A program made the translations under genes and the position numbers. The notes under the pieces are model-generated. The model had not been told where the DNA came from. It did not search any database and saw only the letters and a list, made by a program, of their open reading frames with translations. From Pseudomonadota bacterium (lineage in GTDB: Bacteria; Pseudomonadota; Alphaproteobacteria; RF32; CAG-239): a DNA stretch of 49,462 nucleotides. The DNA lies in NCBI GenBank assembly GCA_918234285.1, contig CAKJXZ020000022.1, positions 1 through 49,462 of the forward strand, in the 5' to 3' direction. Every line of letters begins with the position of its first letter. Position 1 is the first letter of the stretch. Below, piece by piece: positions 3-49,462 of the stretch.

Positions 3-77
3 TGGTGATCCCAACGGGACTCGAACCCATATTGCCACCGTGAAAGGGTGATGTCCTAACCATTAGACGATGGGACC
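3..77 (-). tRNA. tRNA-Glu (TTC)
   Basis: Reverse complement GGTCCCATCGTCTAATGG...TCACC-CT-TTC-AC-GGTGG...GGTTCGAGTCCC...TGGGATC-A-CCA; full cloverleaf, encoded CCA. Confidence 0.97.
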
Positions 78-25245: not shown

Positions 25246-25321
25246 GGGCGCTTAGCTCAGCTGGAAGAGCATCTCGTTTACACCGAGAGGGTCGGGAGTT
25301 CGAACCTCTCAGCGCCCACCA
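25246..25321 (+). tRNA. tRNA-Val (TAC)
   Basis: GGGCGCTTAGCTCAG...TCTCG-TT-TAC-AC-CGAGA...GGGAGTTCGAACCTCTC-AGCGCCC-A-CCA. Confidence 0.97.
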
Positions 25322-25564
25322 TTACAAAAAACGCCTTTGGGCGTTTTTTTTATTTTCTGCACCTAACAGAGGTTTGAACTCCCGGAACGGGAGTTTGACC
25401 ACAAGCGAAAGGCGGGCGGGAGAACGCCGGTCGCGAAGCGATGAGCGCAGGGGCGGACGAAGTGAAACGAAGGCCAGCCTCTCAGCGCCCACCATTACAA
25501 AAAACGCCTTTGGGCGTTTTTTTTATTTTCTGCACCTAACAGAGGTTTGAACTCCCGGAACGGG
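25305..25564 (+). repeat. tRNA-Val-linked repeat: identical 87-bp direct repeats (25305-25391, 25478-25564), period 173 bp
   Basis: Each copy = last 17 nt of the tRNA + terminator + antisense T-arm (agaggtttgaactcccg) + cggg. Confidence 0.92.
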
Positions 25565-25569
25565 CTTTT

Positions 25570-25670
25570 GCAATATAAACAACCTCAAAATGTTGTTTGT
25601 ATTGCAAGAGGCGCAGTTTTCTTAATAAGCATGGAAAGCGACAGCGACCGCGGCGAATTTAGAAAACAAG
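25570..25670 (+). repeat. ~101-nt structured module inserted in the second tRNA-Val repeat unit
   Basis: Near-identical to 49221-49322; 14-bp hairpin plus gttttct/agaaaac stem. Confidence 0.88.
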
Positions 25671-25700
25671 CCGACCACAAGCGAAAGGCTGTTTGCTAAC

Positions 25701-25739
25701 AAAAAAAGTCCGCGAAAAATCAATTTCGCGAACTTTTTT
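25701..25739. terminator. Bidirectional terminator
   Basis: aaaaaaagtccgcgaaa...tttcgcgaactttttt. Confidence 0.7.
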
Positions 25740-25749
25740 CAACATAGTT

Positions 25750-26490
25750 CTATTTCTTAAAGGCAACCAGCTTGGCATACATCTGCAACGTCTTTTCGTC
25801 GGCGACCTCAAATTCATTAAGACGGCCGATAAACGTGTGCTTTCCCTTATGCACCACCGGCAAAACCAGTGCCGTAAAATCCTTAGCGTCAGGAGCAATC
25901 AGACTGCTGATGGGCTCACATCCGGGCAAATGCGGCGATATAATTTCATAAGCGTCGATTTGCGCGTTTTTTGCCTGCTTTAGCCAATAATCGTAACCGT
26001 TGAAAAACAGATTCTTCAGCGGATAAATATCCTCGCCCCCTGCCGTTATCGACAGCGCCAAAATTTCCTCAACCGTGGGTAACTCAAGCTTAAAAGGCGG
26101 TTTGGCATCACCCCAATTATAATATTCCAGCCAAATCTGTTTTTTCAGCATATCCAGCGCGCTGATAATTCCCTCCTTAGCAACACGCGGATATTCGGCA
26201 AAGACAAAACCGTCGTCCCATGCCGGAAAATCCGGATTAGGCTCGACCTTGAGGCAACGATTAAGGTAAAAAACCCCGTTCATCTCGATTCCGAGCGGCT
26301 TGAGTGCTCTGATTTGAAACGGCATCGAACAGAGAGTTCCGTCAGCGTAATACACTATACCGTACGGATAAGTGAGCGGTCTGGAATCGGTGGCCAACCA
26401 CGTTTTGTATGATTGCACCAGCAACTCGATTTTCCCCGGAGAAACAATTCCTTTTTCCTGCAGGTCTCGATACATTTGTATAAAATCCAT
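25750..26490 (-). CDS. Hypothetical protein (orphan)
   Basis: 246-aa ORF ending at a terminator; weak GIVYY / LPT.EE / YW / VLPV pattern. Confidence 0.7.
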   Translation of the reverse strand: MDFIQMYRDLQEKGIVSPGKIELLVQSYKTWLATDSRPLTYPYGIVYYADGTLCSMPFQIRALKPLGIEMNGVFYLNRCLKVEPNPDFPAWDDGFVFAEYPRVAKEGIISALDMLKKQIWLEYYNWGDAKPPFKLELPTVEEILALSITAGGEDIYPLKNLFFNGYDYWLKQAKNAQIDAYEIISPHLPGCEPISSLIAPDAKDFTALVLPVVHKGKHTFIGRLNEFEVADEKTLQMYAKLVAFKK

Positions 26491-26657
26491 AATGTGTCAC
26501 GGGCTCTTACCGCCGACCGGTTTCTTCTAATATTTATTTACATAATTTTCTGTGGAGTTTTACGTATAATAAAAAAAATCAAAAAAATCAATATTTTTTA
26601 CTGGACATTTGCGACAATTAAACTATAAATGCAAACAGCTTATAACAGAGGAATAAT

Positions 26658-28073
26658 ATGATAAACGATTTAACCGTCGGACACCCGCTGAAACTGATTA
26701 TTTGGTTTGCCCTGCCGCTATTACTCGGCAACCTGTTTCTGCAATTGTATCAAATATCCGATATGATTATCGTCGGCCATCTTATCAGCGTCAACGCTTT
26801 GGCTGCAATCGGCGCTTCGGCTCCGATATATATGGTGTTTTTAATGGTGGCATTCGGCTTTACCGGCGGCTTGACCGTGATTACGGCCCAGCGTTTCGGC
26901 GCGCGCGATTACGACGGTGTTAAAATGTCGGTATTCCATTGTTTATTGGCGGCGCTGATATTAAGTGTGGTTTTAACCTGCGGTCTGATTCTCTCTCTCA
27001 AACCCCTGCTTCGCATTATGAATATGCCACCGGAATTGTTTGACGACGCTTATGACTTTATGTTTGTAATGTGTTTAAGCACGGTGATGATTGTGCTTTT
27101 CAACCTGCTTTCCGGTTTTATTCGCGCGCTCGGCGACAGCAAAACCCCGCTTTATTTTTTGATTTTCTGCTCGCTGATTAATATTGTATTGAATTTTATT
27201 TTCATCAAATATTGCGGCTGGGGTGTTGTCGGTTCGGCCATGGGTACTCTGACTTCCAATGCCATATCGGTTGTTATTTGCTTTATTTATATGTGGCATA
27301 AATTCCCGCTGTTGCGACTTGATAAAAAATATATGCAATATAACTCGCATGTTATGCGCGACCATTTGCGCCTTGCTTTCCCGATGGCGTTGCAATTTTC
27401 GATTCTCTCGTTCAGTATTATGATTATTCAGAGCGTATGTAACTCTTTCGGTCCCGACATAATCGCTGCCTTTGCCGCCGCTTTTCGCATTGAGCAATTC
27501 GCCACTCAGCCGCTGTTGGCGCTTGGTCTTTCCATGGCGACTTTTACGGCGCAGAATTGGGGTGCGCACTTGCTTTCACGTATTCGCCGCGGCGTTAAAT
27601 ATGCCTTTATCATGTCAACAATTATCAGTATTGCCGGCTTTTTCCTCATTCGCAAAATCGGCTCCGGCATGATTGCCATGTTTATTGATACCGGTGACAA
27701 CGTTTCCGGCAACGATATTGCCCTGATTTTGGATGTGGGGCGGCAATACCTTATTATCAGCACCATGTTCTATTTCTTTTTGGGTATGATTTTTGTATTT
27801 CGTAACACCATTCAAGGGATGGGAAAACCGCTGTTGCCGCTGTTTTCGTGTATTCTCGAACTGGTGGTACGTGCTTTCAGTGCAATTGTGCTTGCCGCGG
27901 CTATCGGCTATAAAGGCATTATGTATGCCGGTCCGTTGGCTTGGCTTGCCGCCGGAATATTGGTTATCGCCGGCTATTTGTATTATGTTCGCAAATTCAG
28001 CAAAAGCAACCGCTTTATCTGGACAATGGGCGAAATCAAACAACAACTCCGCCAAAACGGTCCGATAGATTAA
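26658..28073 (+). CDS. MATE family efflux transporter
   Basis: DLT.G.PLKLI..FALPLLLGNLF.QLY...D, AQRFGA, RALGDSKTPL, AQNWGA; about 12 TM. Confidence 0.95.
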   Translation: MINDLTVGHPLKLIIWFALPLLLGNLFLQLYQISDMIIVGHLISVNALAAIGASAPIYMVFLMVAFGFTGGLTVITAQRFGARDYDGVKMSVFHCLLAALILSVVLTCGLILSLKPLLRIMNMPPELFDDAYDFMFVMCLSTVMIVLFNLLSGFIRALGDSKTPLYFLIFCSLINIVLNFIFIKYCGWGVVGSAMGTLTSNAISVVICFIYMWHKFPLLRLDKKYMQYNSHVMRDHLRLAFPMALQFSILSFSIMIIQSVCNSFGPDIIAAFAAAFRIEQFATQPLLALGLSMATFTAQNWGAHLLSRIRRGVKYAFIMSTIISIAGFFLIRKIGSGMIAMFIDTGDNVSGNDIALILDVGRQYLIISTMFYFFLGMIFVFRNTIQGMGKPLLPLFSCILELVVRAFSAIVLAAAIGYKGIMYAGPLAWLAAGILVIAGYLYYVRKFSKSNRFIWTMGEIKQQLRQNGPID

Positions 28074-28076
28074 GCC

Positions 28077-29054
28077 TTATTTTTTAAGCAACTTCAGCAA
28101 AGCGTAATGTTGGCGGCAAAAAGCCCACAGCGTAAGTCTTTGCCGCAAGTTCAGCATCGCCGGCAGTAAACAACCGCTTTGCAACAACTCCGCCAGATTT
28201 TGCCGCAAAACACCATAGCGCTCGCCGTCTTGCGCCGGATTGTAGCGCTGCAAATATTCTTTTATGTGCATACCGTAAGCATAGCGCGCGGCAATTTTCT
28301 GCAATATTTTACGTTGCTCGGGATACGCGGCGATCAGCTTATTGATATCAATACAAAGGTTCTTAAATTCTTCGATTCGCTTAAATGACAAGTCCTTTAA
28401 AGTTTGCGAAGTTTCGATAATGCGATAGGCAATCAGCGGAGTACGACAAACCGCAGCCTTGCGACTTTTGAGCAGAATTTCCGCATTCAGCAATATATCG
28501 TTGATGGCCGGCAAATCAAGTGCAAAACGTGTATTGGCAAACAATTCGCGCCGATAAAGTTTGGTCCACATCAGCATCTCGATTTTCTTTTTGTGCACAA
28601 ATTTATCAATAAACGGCCGTTCTGATATAAAATCAATCATCGGCGTCAATACCGTATCGGCAAAATCGTAAACCTCCCCGCCTGCAAAACGCAAATACGA
28701 ACAACAGCTCAAATCGGCATCGCTTGTGATAATATTTTGATATAAAATCTCCAAATATTGCGGGTGCAAAATATCGTCATTATCCAAAAAAGCAATGTAT
28801 TTTCCGGCCGCCAGTTCCAACCCCTTATTGCGTGCCGCACTGCCGCCGGCATTAGCCTGCCGATGAATTTTGAATCGCGCGTCATTTGCCGCAAAATCCG
28901 CCAATATCTGCGGCGAAGCATCACTCGAACCGTCATCTACGCAAATCGCTTCAAAATCCTTAAATGTCTGCTTTTGTAGTGACTGCAACGTTGTTTGCAG
29001 ATATTTCTCGGCATTGTAAACCGGAATGATTACCGAAATCTGAGGTTCTGCCAT
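28077..29054 (-). CDS. Glycosyltransferase family 2
   Basis: ISVIIPVYN, VDDGSSD, N.GGSAARN.GL, FLDNDD. Confidence 0.93.
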   Translation of the reverse strand: MAEPQISVIIPVYNAEKYLQTTLQSLQKQTFKDFEAICVDDGSSDASPQILADFAANDARFKIHRQANAGGSAARNKGLELAAGKYIAFLDNDDILHPQYLEILYQNIITSDADLSCCSYLRFAGGEVYDFADTVLTPMIDFISERPFIDKFVHKKKIEMLMWTKLYRRELFANTRFALDLPAINDILLNAEILLKSRKAAVCRTPLIAYRIIETSQTLKDLSFKRIEEFKNLCIDINKLIAAYPEQRKILQKIAARYAYGMHIKEYLQRYNPAQDGERYGVLRQNLAELLQSGCLLPAMLNLRQRLTLWAFCRQHYALLKLLKK

Positions 29055-30112
29055 TATTTTTTATCCTTGTCATCAAAATATTTTACGGCCGCATCAAGCT
29101 TTTCCGCCACCACCGGCAACGCATATTTTTCCATACAAAGCAAATACCCGCGACGAGCCCTTTGTCGCGACTCGCTCAAGTTTTGCACGGCCAGTTGCAA
29201 CTGGTCTGCCATGGCATCGATGTCACCGGCATCAAACAAATATGCGGCGTCGGCATGACCGGTAAAAATCTCCCGCGGACCTTCAGCCAACGACGATACA
29301 ATCGGCTTACCATGCAACATCGCTTCCAACAAAACAATACCGAACGGCTCAAAGCGCGATGGTAAAACAAACACGTCAATATTGCTGAAAAACTCGGTTT
29401 TATCGTGCACCCAACCCAAAAGCGCTACTTCTTTATCCAAATGATTTTCCTGTATTTGGCGACGGATACTCATATATTCTTTCATATATGCATCTTGCGG
29501 CGCTCCCCCGATAACCGCCTTAAATTTCACGCCGCGGTCTTTCAGCTTGGCCAAAGCCGCAACCAAATCCGGAAAGCCTTTCATCGGGTCAAAGCGCCCC
29601 ATGGTACCGATAACCGGCAGTTGATGGAAATCTTGCTCATAAAATTCGCGACCGGCACTGATTAAATTCGGGATGGTAAAAATTCGTCCCAACGGATAGC
29701 CTTTCTTGGCAAAAACACCGCGTTGATAATCGGTAATCGTGAAAATTCCGTCGCATTTATCAATATGCCGAAACTTAGGATTATGCGACACCGCCACTAT
29801 TTTAGCGCCGAGCAACCGCGCCACCGCTTTAAATATCGGCACGGCTTTTTTGTTGTGCACAATCACCAAATCCGGTGCAAATTTTCTGAGCTTAAAATAA
29901 AGATACGGCACCAACAACCAATTATAATGCACAAACGGAATTCGCACCGTATCATCCGGCTTAAGCACTCGCAAAGCGGGAATGATTTTACATTTGCTGT
30001 CAACCACCGCACAAACCTGATGATTATACATTTTCAACGCCTCGGTATAATCCAAAAAGGCTTGTTCTATTCCCCCCATCACACGGCTTATCATAACATT
30101 GACTATACGCAT
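29054..30112 (-). CDS. Glycosyltransferase family 4
   Basis: GGIE, GRFDPMKG, PSRFEPFGIVLLEAM. Confidence 0.93.
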   Translation of the reverse strand: MRIVNVMISRVMGGIEQAFLDYTEALKMYNHQVCAVVDSKCKIIPALRVLKPDDTVRIPFVHYNWLLVPYLYFKLRKFAPDLVIVHNKKAVPIFKAVARLLGAKIVAVSHNPKFRHIDKCDGIFTITDYQRGVFAKKGYPLGRIFTIPNLISAGREFYEQDFHQLPVIGTMGRFDPMKGFPDLVAALAKLKDRGVKFKAVIGGAPQDAYMKEYMSIRRQIQENHLDKEVALLGWVHDKTEFFSNIDVFVLPSRFEPFGIVLLEAMLHGKPIVSSLAEGPREIFTGHADAAYLFDAGDIDAMADQLQLAVQNLSESRQRARRGYLLCMEKYALPVVAEKLDAAVKYFDDKDKK

Positions 30113-30113
30113 T

Positions 30114-31028
30114 TTATTCTCCTAACCTGCCGCTCAATAAACAATCCAAAAAAGAATTTCTCGCCGGTTCTTTTTTATATTTCCAACTCAATTTATGCAC
30201 GGATGTTTTGCCCTTGATTTCCGCCCATTTCTGCACCGTATACGGCTCAAAAAAGTTATCCGCCAGCTCATAACAATCGTCATAAATCAGCGGAGTTTGC
30301 GCCCATTGCCGCGCACATTCCGCCTTATACGTAACCACCATATCATACGCTATATAAACCAGAAAATAATTAATCATCCGGTTCTCATGCTTCCAATATT
30401 CAAACATAAAATTCTTCAAACAACGAATAATAATATCGTCTTTTCCGGCTTTTAAAAACCAACTCTGTCCCTGATACAATTCACGACAATGAAACGCGAA
30501 AAAAGGTGCTTCAAGAATTGCTTGCGACAACGGTTCAGTCAAAAATACCGTGGCGTCCATCCATAATCCGCCGTATTTTGCCAAGAGCGCGACACGCAAC
30601 AAATCGGAGAGTTGTGTGCGGGTTATACTTCCTTTTCGGTGCTTTTGCATAATATAATCCGGCAATTCCACATAATCGTGCATATTGTCGGCGGTGATAA
30701 CGCGTAGCTCATAATCGGGACAATATTTACGGATTGATTCAATACATTTTTTAACCACCGGCGGCAAATTTTCCTCACCCTGCCACCAGCAAGTCCAGAT
30801 AATCTTCGGAGCAGCGGTCGGCGCTTCCTCTGCCGCAATTGCATCAAGCGCATACAAATAACGACTTAAATACTTTTTTTCCGCCTCGCAACGCAGTTGC
30901 TTAAACTTGGCTTTGCGCTCTGTTTTATTTTTATAACGTAAGGTCGTGAACAACCGCAGCCAAAGCACATAAAGCTTAACTTTCAAAAATGCCGTACGGC
31001 GCAAGCAAAAATCAATTATATTCTTCAT
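30114..31028 (-). CDS. Capsular polysaccharide synthesis protein (Caps_synth/GT32-like)
   Basis: KIIWTCWWQG, SDLLR..LL.KYGGLWMDAT, HKLSWK. Confidence 0.88.
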   Translation of the reverse strand: MKNIIDFCLRRTAFLKVKLYVLWLRLFTTLRYKNKTERKAKFKQLRCEAEKKYLSRYLYALDAIAAEEAPTAAPKIIWTCWWQGEENLPPVVKKCIESIRKYCPDYELRVITADNMHDYVELPDYIMQKHRKGSITRTQLSDLLRVALLAKYGGLWMDATVFLTEPLSQAILEAPFFAFHCRELYQGQSWFLKAGKDDIIIRCLKNFMFEYWKHENRMINYFLVYIAYDMVVTYKAECARQWAQTPLIYDDCYELADNFFEPYTVQKWAEIKGKTSVHKLSWKYKKEPARNSFLDCLLSGRLGE

Positions 31029-44172: not shown

Positions 44173-44248
44173 GAGTTCGTAGCTCAGTCGGTAGAGCATT
44201 TGACTTTTAATCAAAGGGTCGCGGGTTCGAATCCCACCGAGCTCACCA
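44173..44248 (+). tRNA. tRNA-Lys (TTT)
   Basis: GAGTTCGTAGCTCAG...TTTGA-CT-TTT-AA-TCAAA...GCGGGTTCGAATCCCAC-CGAGCTC-A-CCA. Confidence 0.96.
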
Positions 44249-44429
44249 ACAAAAGGAGGCCGCCTTGCGCGGTCTTTTTTTTGTTGGTTTGAGGTCGCGG
44301 ATGAGAACCCGCGAAATCGGGTTCGACGCCAAGCGAAAGGCAGACGATAGTATGCCGGTCGCCACAGGCGATGAGCGCAGAAAGTCGTGAGGAGCACCGC
44401 GACGAAGGACAATCCCACCGAGCTCACCA
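44230..44429 (+). repeat. tRNA-Lys-linked repeat element, period 181 bp
   Basis: 19-nt tRNA 3' end aatcccaccgagctcacca at 44230-44248 and 44411-44429, enclosing terminator, antisense T-arm and a core shared with the Val and Thr loci. Confidence 0.92.
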
Positions 44430-49069: not shown

Positions 49070-49145
<76 letters not shown>

Positions 49146-49462
49146 ATAAAAGAACTCCTCCTTGCGAGGAGTTTTTTTGTTGGTATCGGGAGGGGAGAAG
49201 AACGCCCGAGGAGGGCGCTCGCAAATAAAAACAACCTCAAAATGTTGTTTTTATTGCAAGAGGCGCAGTTTTCTTAATAAGCAAGGAAAGCGACAGCGAC
49301 CGCGGCGAATTTAGAAAACAAGTGACCGAAGCGAAGTTAGCGATTGCCGAATAAAATGAAGGCAGAGCTTACGGAGCAAGAACGACAAGGAGGCACCGGC
49401 AGACGAAAGTATGCCGGTCAGCATTGGCTGACAGCCGACGCAGGTAGCAAGCGTAGCGCCGC
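49146..49462 (+). repeat. tRNA-Thr-linked element (runs off the window end)
   Basis: Terminator, antisense T-arm gaacgcccga (49200-49209), 102-nt module (49221-49322) shared with the Val locus, ggcagacgaaagtatgccggtc shared with the Lys locus. Confidence 0.88.

Follow-up and report, generated by a model that had tools for sequence, protein, structure and literature searches.

MITEs, REP/BIME sequences, and PATEs are short, multi-copy, gene-less, and hairpin-rich elements that lie between genes, often behind terminators. Mobile elements of the IS200/IS605 kind use strand-specific hairpins that act in single-stranded DNA and leave no target duplication, and class C group II introns recognise stem-loops in single-stranded nucleic acid and insert near terminators or attC hairpins. 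tRNA genes are, in addition, the classic landing sites of large integrating elements. In this study, we analysed a window of 49,462 nucleotides (the whole stretch of DNA under study) from a genome of 2.0 Mb in 71 contigs (G000), in which two copies of a structured module of about 100 nt are located 3' of tRNA genes, each on the strand of its tRNA.

ARAGORN identified four tRNA genes in the window, namely, tRNA-Glu (3-77, reverse strand), tRNA-Val(TAC) (25246-25321), tRNA-Lys(TTT) (44173-44248), and tRNA-Thr(CGT) (49070-49145), with the module copies behind those for Val and Thr; the features of the Val, Lys, and Thr loci described below are all on the forward strand. A survey of the region 3' of all 40 tRNA genes of the genome revealed a common plan of such tails, in which a palindromic terminator is followed by an antisense copy of the T-arm, a short and often GNRA-like turn, a sense copy of the 5' strand of the T-stem with TTCGA, and structured cargo. 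An antisense T-arm with 4 or fewer mismatches of 17 was present at 41-57 nt for 16 of the 40 tRNAs, and a repeat of the tRNA 3' end was present at +153 to +220 for 9 of the 40. One kind of cargo, designated E-type, consists of a hairpin with a GNRA-type loop and a GGTCGC..GCGAT hairpin and makes up unit 1 of the Val tail, the Lys tail, and the distal part of the Thr tail. The module (B) is another kind, commonly followed by GAGTGACCGAAGCGAAG (C) and then by a hairpin with AGCAAGAA (D); the C motif follows the module with at least 70% identity in 66 of 109 copies and with less than 50% identity in 23 of them.

The Val locus consists of two tail units behind an intact tRNA gene (64.9 bits with the Rfam tRNA model). 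Unit 1 has a terminator-like hairpin at 25326-25349, which recurs identically at 25499-25522 in unit 2, an antisense T-arm of tRNA-Val (A) at 25369-25387, which begins 46 nt past the tRNA end and has 1 mismatch of 17, and E-type cargo at 25388-25477, made up of the sense T-stem copy with TTTGA, the hairpin with the GNRA-type loop, and the GGTCGC..GCGAT hairpin. Unit 2 begins with the second copy (25478-25570) of a 93-nt direct repeat, the first copy of which is at 25305-25397 (98% identity by repeat search) and which comprises the 3' part of the tRNA from the 3' strand of the T-stem, CCA, the terminator, and the antisense T-arm. The two units thus share their flanks, the left one being the 93-nt repeat and the right one the GACCACAAGCGAAAGGC motif. 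As had been described from the sequence alone, unit 1 has no module, whereas that of unit 2 (25570-25672, P1 and then P2/P3) lies between TTTG and ACCACAAGCGAA of the resident tail. Unit 1 can, hence, be used as the empty-site reference for unit 2. The tail of tRNA-Lys(TTT) (44249-44429) has its own terminator, an antisense T-arm, and E-type cargo, with no module; it ends in a 19-nt repeat of the tRNA 3' end (44411-44429), behind which a different, presumably original, terminator follows.

At the Thr locus, where the tRNA gene is likewise intact (ARAGORN and Rfam), a terminator-like hairpin (49158-49171) is followed at 49181-49219 by the antisense T-arm, a short turn, and the sense T-stem copy, which ends in CTCG, a pseudo-T-loop that forms the left flank of the nested element. 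This element of about 164 nt extends from 49220 to 49383, with limits uncertain by about 2-4 nt, and is composed of B (49221-49322), the C motif (49323-49338), and D, the hairpin with AGCAAGAA (49339-49383). The E-type tail resumes at 49384 and reaches the end of the window at 49462, where the end of its contig (C22) shares 37 nt with the beginning of contig C30, and the Thr array runs on in the latter (C30:1-300) with a second unit, the site of which is empty, and with a partial antisense T-arm before the host flank. The proposed insertion in a pseudo-T-loop is therefore supported for both window copies, which lie directly 3' of TTYG in a sense T-arm copy, and so is the description of the tails as accretive arrays, since Val and Thr have two units each and relatives have zero, one, or two.

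Other tails of this group vary in what they hold. In a comparison of L153 with L155 (the Val loci of G069 and G042), the antisense/sense T-arm hairpin, which stands without cargo behind the terminator at some tRNAs, is shrunk to a trace in the sister genome; this cargo-less hairpin could be a footprint or a precursor state. At tRNA-Ser(CGA), a 7.6-kb insert (C30:74870-82577) with two integrase-family genes is delimited by a repeated tRNA 3' end, and the displaced original 3' end retains its own terminator, an antisense T-arm, and a module copy.

The two window copies are nearly identical, as previously described, with 97% identity and 3 mismatches over 99 nt (25572-25670 and 49224-49322, repeat search of the window). 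With the bases of the outer stem included, pairwise alignment matched 25570-25670 with 49221/49222-49322, the Thr copy having one extra A, and identity was lost sharply at both edges of the block. In P1, the first hairpin, a T.G pair of the Val copy is an A-T pair in the Thr copy, with both arms altered, so that the compensatory exchange noted earlier is real, and the orthologous Val copy of a sister genome (G101) has a second double change, from T-A to C-G. The P1 differences among these three closest copies thus amount to two compensated pairs. The second stem noted earlier, GTTTTCT/AGAAAAC around a GC-rich tip, corresponds to the P2/P3 helix of the consensus fold, a part that is identical in the Thr copy of G000 and the Val copy of G101.

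The consensus fold, derived with RNAalifold from 14 copies, consists of P1 (9 pairs) and a long irregular P2/P3 helix, the irregularities of which include a U.U and a tandem G.A. Compensatory double changes were found at 15 of the 26 pairs in the 14 seed sequences and at 25 of the 26 in 114 distinct sequences. In the latter, 96.3% of the paired cells were occupied by pairs, compared with 73.3% in shuffled controls and 39-57% with slid partners, and none of the 500 shuffles reached any observed pairing measure; at one position, G-U was the commonest pair (61 of the 114 sequences). The pair counts come from a model-fitted alignment, which inflates the share of paired cells, and the pair types and double changes are nevertheless far beyond the controls. 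Furthermore, the 164-nt Thr insert folded at -46.4 kcal/mol (z -4.42) on the tRNA-sense strand, compared with -34.9 kcal/mol (z -1.74) on the antisense strand. Taken together, these results show that the fold is kept by compensatory change and that it belongs to the tRNA-sense strand, and the module is structured as had been proposed.

Outside the Alphaproteobacteria, MAGs of Clostridia (Lachnospiraceae, Eubacteriaceae, and others) share only the P2/P3 hairpin (model positions 53-102), which is embedded there in different repeats of about 150-200 nt. These matches have weak model scores (E 0.002-0.3), and the search pattern required the motif. At the one Clostridia locus checked for tRNAs (L101), the hairpin lies 3' of a tRNA. 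In the Lachnospiraceae MAG RUG13462, at least 8 contigs have an intergenic repeat (about 150-200 nt) with the P2/P3 hairpin inside a different outer helix (loci L044, L060, L072, L074, L078, L083, and L103). A P2/P3 hairpin that extends from Alphaproteobacteria to Clostridia and has no described RNA family is a candidate for a new RNA or DNA motif.

Comparison with relatives revealed filled and empty states of the same sites. At the Thr locus, G101 matched the window throughout by BLAST, except for query 719-884, which corresponds to window positions of about 49218-49383. In G101, G108, and G102, GGGCGTTTGA is followed at once by E-type cargo, with no B-C-D, and in G000, the B-C-D piece of about 164 nt lies between CTCG and CGACAAGG, the insertion point being the T-loop-like TTYGA of the older tail. 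In the array of G000, unit 2 is empty beside the filled unit 1, and both states therefore coexist in one genome, as at Val. The Val insert, B alone with about 103 nt, is shared with G101, in which the flanks are 88% identical; it is missing from the one or two tail units of G106 and G108, and the Val tail is absent entirely from G113, G102, and G117. The comparison of filled with empty sites in different genomes or array units shows that the module is nested in older tails, and the absence of the Thr insert from three relatives and from unit 2 of its own array, together with similar comparisons at a tRNA-Pro gene and a MuF-like gene described below, supports the claim of independent mobility. 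The unit that moves requires a correction at Thr. The preliminary description took 49221-49322, about 101 nt, as the mobile cassette; the shared core does end at 49322, and only the module is present at Val, but the inserted DNA at Thr reaches about 49383. Since it is about 164 nt that are missing from the empty Thr sites, the mobile unit there is the module with a 3' extension (C and D).

Such arrays call for caution as to the assembly. Contigs do break at the repeats, with C22 ending within the Thr array and the Logan contigs of run X1 stopping at 25274 and starting again at 25478, and many module copies are at contig ends, as would be expected if unrelated repeat copies had been joined by an assembly or binning artefact. 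However, the same architecture recurs in dozens of independent MAGs, the orthologous locus of G101 has the same layout with 88% identity, and Logan contigs of two runs (X1 record 2, 25478-30807; X4 record 25, 25478-25912) connect the Val module with the downstream gene, a join that is therefore not an artefact of this one assembly. An artefact is, thus, highly improbable as the origin of these structures. With regard to the mis-assembly that had been raised as a concern, the contigs support this join, whereas no Logan contig bridges Val unit 1. Among the contigs of four runs, there was no excision joint, and no excised or circular form was seen; the few contig joints near the tails stem from other tRNA tails or other organisms.

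The preliminary description left room for the pair being the only two copies, and the family proved to be far larger. BLAST found at least 10 diverged copies in the 2.0-Mb genome, and a covariance model built from 14 copies found 24. At the BLAST level, matches were present in 58 of 101 sampled genomes and in 17 of 23 genera of the same taxonomic family; carrier genomes often have several copies, often in tandem at a spacing of about 200-250 nt, and copies are frequently found at contig ends. The carriers in a pattern scan were ruminant and other gut MAGs ("Alphaproteobacteria bacterium" and "Azospirillum sp."), and a search of sequencing runs likewise pointed to the ruminant gut. The covariance model gave 121 matches in 100 loci, 114 of them distinct, with the Val copy (25570-25672) scoring 113.6 bits. 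When 67 of the 121 matches were examined for tRNAs, 32 had a same-strand tRNA 59-324 nt upstream and 35 had none inside the available flank; at one locus with two copies (L016), the orientation of the module is opposite to that of its tRNA. In Rfam 15, the module matched no family at gathering or permissive thresholds, with only the tRNAs passing and with the sub-threshold rows on or beside the copies being scattered sRNA models below their gathering scores, and a full-text literature search found nothing similar. The module thus represents a large family in gut bacteria that is undescribed, as judged by the full-text literature search and Rfam.

Two clusters of copies stand out in G000. On C58 (18400-22380, L219-L222), tRNA-Phe is followed by five module copies and a second tRNA 3'-end repeat at +3974; the 4-kb stretch flanked by the copies encloses two ORFs (331 and 428 aa), for which Pfam returned no family. 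On C30 (5600-6470, L004 and L210), five module-type copies surround tRNA-Arg(CCG), upstream of which there are partial duplicates of the 5' part of the gene (acceptor and D-arm) and of the anticodon arm; insertion on the 5' side thus seems to be accompanied by duplication of that end of the gene.

Insertions are also found outside the tails. In G021, a B-C-D copy splits a tRNA-Pro(TGG) gene, which ARAGORN reads as a gene with a 136-nt intron in the anticodon loop, and an intact tRNA-Pro paralogue with a homologous downstream gene is present elsewhere. The neighbouring copy in that genome, behind tRNA-Val(GAC), includes 13 nt of the 3' flank of the tRNA-Pro, and flanking sequence can therefore move with the element. 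A phage MuF-like gene of G000 is interrupted within a conserved motif by a 163-nt copy (C3:118789-118951); G142 has a filled site as well, whereas that of G093 and G092 is uninterrupted. Read by eye, the element is identical in G000 and G142 over its first 97 nt, compared with 85% identity by BLAST over a stretch that includes the exon, and a 7-nt inverted repeat can be read on the flanks of the G000 site. An IMG/VR phage contig has a full module copy (55 bits) in the D-loop of a tRNA-Ala, the 5' end of which is duplicated over 21 nt. The MuF-like gene itself (C3:116633-119283, L170 and L196) has a long variable C-terminal part, behind which there is a second, orphan C-terminal cassette in which the junction motif recurs, a layout that we take to resemble that of polymorphic-toxin loci.

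These three insertions bear on the possibility that the module belongs to a functional non-coding RNA linked to tRNAs, as an optional domain at its periphery, and moves only by homologous recombination or gene conversion between tail flanks. Tails at different tRNAs do share flanks (the C motif and E-type cargo), and the Thr element is a mosaic, in which B is 97% like the Val copy and the C-D stems match a copy at C30:114k. The identity of P2/P3 between the Thr copy of G000 and the Val copy of G101 would also suit conversion, and RNA-library contigs cover the Val tail (X17 record 10 and X18 record 17), which is a weak hint of read-through transcription and would fit a functional RNA. However, the copies in the MuF coding sequence, the tRNA-Pro anticodon loop, and the phage tRNA-Ala D-loop have no tail homology and argue against gene conversion as the sole route, and among the listed copies, inspected by eye, no other copy of the genome has the right junction of the Thr element that a donor would need. 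Movement by conversion only is, therefore, unlikely.

At the insertion points, G^A lies on the 3' side of a loop, with the window copies at TTYG^A. Of 22 first-unit copies linked to tRNAs, 11 have a tRNA 3'-end repeat, which begins in the T-loop in 10 and in the T-stem in one, and the sites other than T-loops are the anticodon loop of tRNA-Pro and the D-loop of the phage tRNA-Ala. The direct repeats of the tRNA 3' end bound the older tails and not the module insertions at Thr, Val, or the MuF-like gene. Ragged ends and short microhomologies mark the junctions, and target duplication is not regular: at Thr, CG may be duplicated (2 nt), the MuF junction can be read in more than one way, and 3-4 nt of the target were lost at tRNA-Pro. 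The limits of the copied piece also vary, being the module alone at Val, the module with C and D at Thr, and a piece with the additional 13 nt of tRNA-Pro flank in G021. No terminal inverted repeats were present at the ends of the Thr, MuF, and tRNA-Pro inserts, the hairpins of which are internal. A 2-nt crossover like that of serine recombinases would suit CG/CG at Thr, but would put the MuF gene out of frame, and a reading of the terminal CTTG on the reverse strand as IS91-like was abandoned because the junctions do not fit.

The fold and the junctions also invite the explanation that the module is an RNA-level mobile intron or ribozyme, which reverse-splices into loops of tRNAs or mRNAs, is later fixed in DNA, and is spliced from transcripts. 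The strand-specific fold with GNRA-type loops and tandem G.A would suit this, as would the ARAGORN reading of the interrupted tRNA-Pro. At the MuF site, two diverged alleles carry an identical element, as in homing, and open frames are kept in both halves of the gene; moreover, four pairs of empty and filled junctions (Thr, Val, MuF, and tRNA-Pro) allow a reading in which the element ends in G and an A follows. Against it, the intron and ribozyme families of Rfam gave no match at E up to 5 or 10, the base preceding the element is G, compared with the U of group I 5' splice sites, and no reverse transcriptase was found in many carriers, as detailed below. In addition, the intact tRNA-Pro paralogue makes splicing unnecessary there, the identity of the element in G000 and G142 means that the MuF insertion may be too recent for the open frames to count, and one locus has the element reversed. 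An intron-like origin thus appears quite unlikely.

With regard to candidate enzymes, no TnpB, IS110 transposase, or Y1 transposase was found in the genome; for Y1 (PF01797), there were 0 matches in this genome, rated 100% complete, and the control was positive in 6 of 14 genomes. The only reverse transcriptase of the genome (343 aa; C27:8233-11841, L147) is adjacent to ORFs that resemble tail-fibre genes, one of them with a C-terminus rich in Asn and Ala, and looks like part of a diversity-generating retroelement (DGR) of a prophage, the neighbouring ORFs being judged by eye. A reverse transcriptase is present in 36 of 101 genomes and, by a tally of two tables, absent from 34 of the 58 module carriers; none was found in five further carriers (G101, G142, G106, G108, and G084) either. 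We rejected reverse transcriptase as the driver, its distribution not tracking that of the module.

There were 12 tyrosine-recombinase matches in the genome, including four paralogues of about 194-204 aa that are 28-79% identical to each other (C21:1948-2481, C68:35718-36245, C36:50660-51181, and C30:79591-80130). Homologues of this four-member family with 70-85% identity have a scattered occurrence in 13 of 23 genera, a pattern suggestive of horizontal spread of a recombinase family of about 200 aa. It was likewise rejected as the driver, with a patchy distribution (25 of 101 genomes) that is unrelated to that of the module. These recombinases are of interest for a further explanation, according to which islands that integrate at tRNA genes left the tails and the module behind as miniature remnants (CIME-like att fossils), accreted site-specifically by a tyrosine integrase acting in trans. 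In line with this, the direct repeats of the tRNA 3' end begin in the T-loop, units in G106 and at tRNA-Lys have their own terminator, which differs from that of the host, tandem units exist, and the 7.6-kb island at tRNA-Ser(CGA) carries genes of this kind. However, the same types of cargo are found at many tRNAs, each with a matching antisense T-arm, which would not be expected from one integrase, and the cargo lies between the 5' strand of the sense T-stem and the repeat, not where an att crossover would place it. Furthermore, the insertions of the module itself have no long repeat, one being in a coding sequence, and the one recombinase family that was profiled does not track the module. 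Such remnants are, therefore, a very unlikely source of the module.

Based on these findings, we lean, by a narrow preference over the contrary, to the interpretation that the module forms the conserved core of small gene-less elements of about 100-170 nt, a family whose members copy themselves into hairpin loops of the tRNA type. It is, similarly, somewhat probable that the module of the window was inserted twice in the T-loop-like TTYG^A of older tails, which are themselves inserts behind tRNA-Val and tRNA-Thr. The fold may act as a cis-acting signal for insertion, which would use one strand of a nucleic acid in its single-stranded state (most likely DNA, at the replication fork) and could be driven by a host or phage enzyme or by template switching between hairpins. 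Such a drive would explain the ragged ends, the microhomologies at the junctions, and the inverted and direct duplications close by. In real tRNA genes, insertions would survive only if the duplicated end of the gene leaves one copy intact. Several observations weigh against this copying into loops. TnpB, IS110, and Y1 were not found in the genome, and the junctions are unclean, with no consistent target duplication and with the loss of a few target nucleotides at tRNA-Pro. Loops of the GNRA type, tandem G.A, and G-U pairs characterise functional RNAs more than they do DNA signals, and the RNA-library contigs over the Val tail leave room for a role or mechanism at the RNA level. Finally, 35 of the 67 copies examined have no tRNA inside the available flank, and the orientation at L016 is reversed.

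A broader version of the same idea, which we consider doubtful, is that these are "loop invaders," i.e., protein-independent or ribozyme-like folded nucleic acids that enter T, D, and anticodon loops and similar hairpins, with each hit forcing a duplication of the tRNA end and thereby giving rise to arrays, and with P2/P3 being ancient and shared with unrelated repeats of Firmicutes. About half of the tRNA genes in a small gut genome have layered, structured mini-inserts, one kind inside another, with no obvious enzyme. If the fold is a mobility signal, the family would provide a tractable new system for hairpin-directed insertion of DNA or RNA and would account for the breaks at tRNA loci in MAG assemblies of this group.

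In comparison with known systems, the module shares with MITEs, REP sequences, and PATEs that it is short, multi-copy, gene-less, and hairpin-rich; however, it has no terminal inverted repeats or regular target duplication, its limits are ragged, its targets are hairpin loops of the tRNA type, and the genome has no Y1 transposase or TnpB. The tails share with tRNA-integrating islands and CIMEs a tRNA 3'-end repeat that starts from the T-loop, a restored intact tRNA, and tandem stacking, whereas their units are only about 170-240 nt, the same cargo is found at many tRNA species with an own antisense T-arm each, and the module inserts with no long repeat and also outside tRNA loci. With class C group II introns, the module has in common the targeting of stem-loops, an orientation bias, and insertion near terminators, but it is about 100-170 nt, compared with more than 600 nt, it has no group II match in Rfam, and most carriers have no reverse transcriptase. 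The P1 arms, compared by eye with the integron attC core sites RYYYAAC/GTTRRRY, did not fit. The likeness to group I introns lies in the insertions in a tRNA anticodon loop and a phage gene of the structural type, the RNA-like fold, and a last base that can be read as G; in contrast to them, the module is too small, is preceded by G and not U, and is found mostly in T-loop copies outside functional genes, and the Rfam model Intron_gpI matched none of 9 loci at E up to 5 and nothing in the window at its gathering score. The nearest systems in behaviour are hairpin-dependent miniature elements and accretion at tRNA sites, although the module did not pass the defining tests of any family that was tested. 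On the best reading, the module elements are non-autonomous, fold in a strand-specific manner, and form a new family that inserts into tRNA-like hairpin loops.
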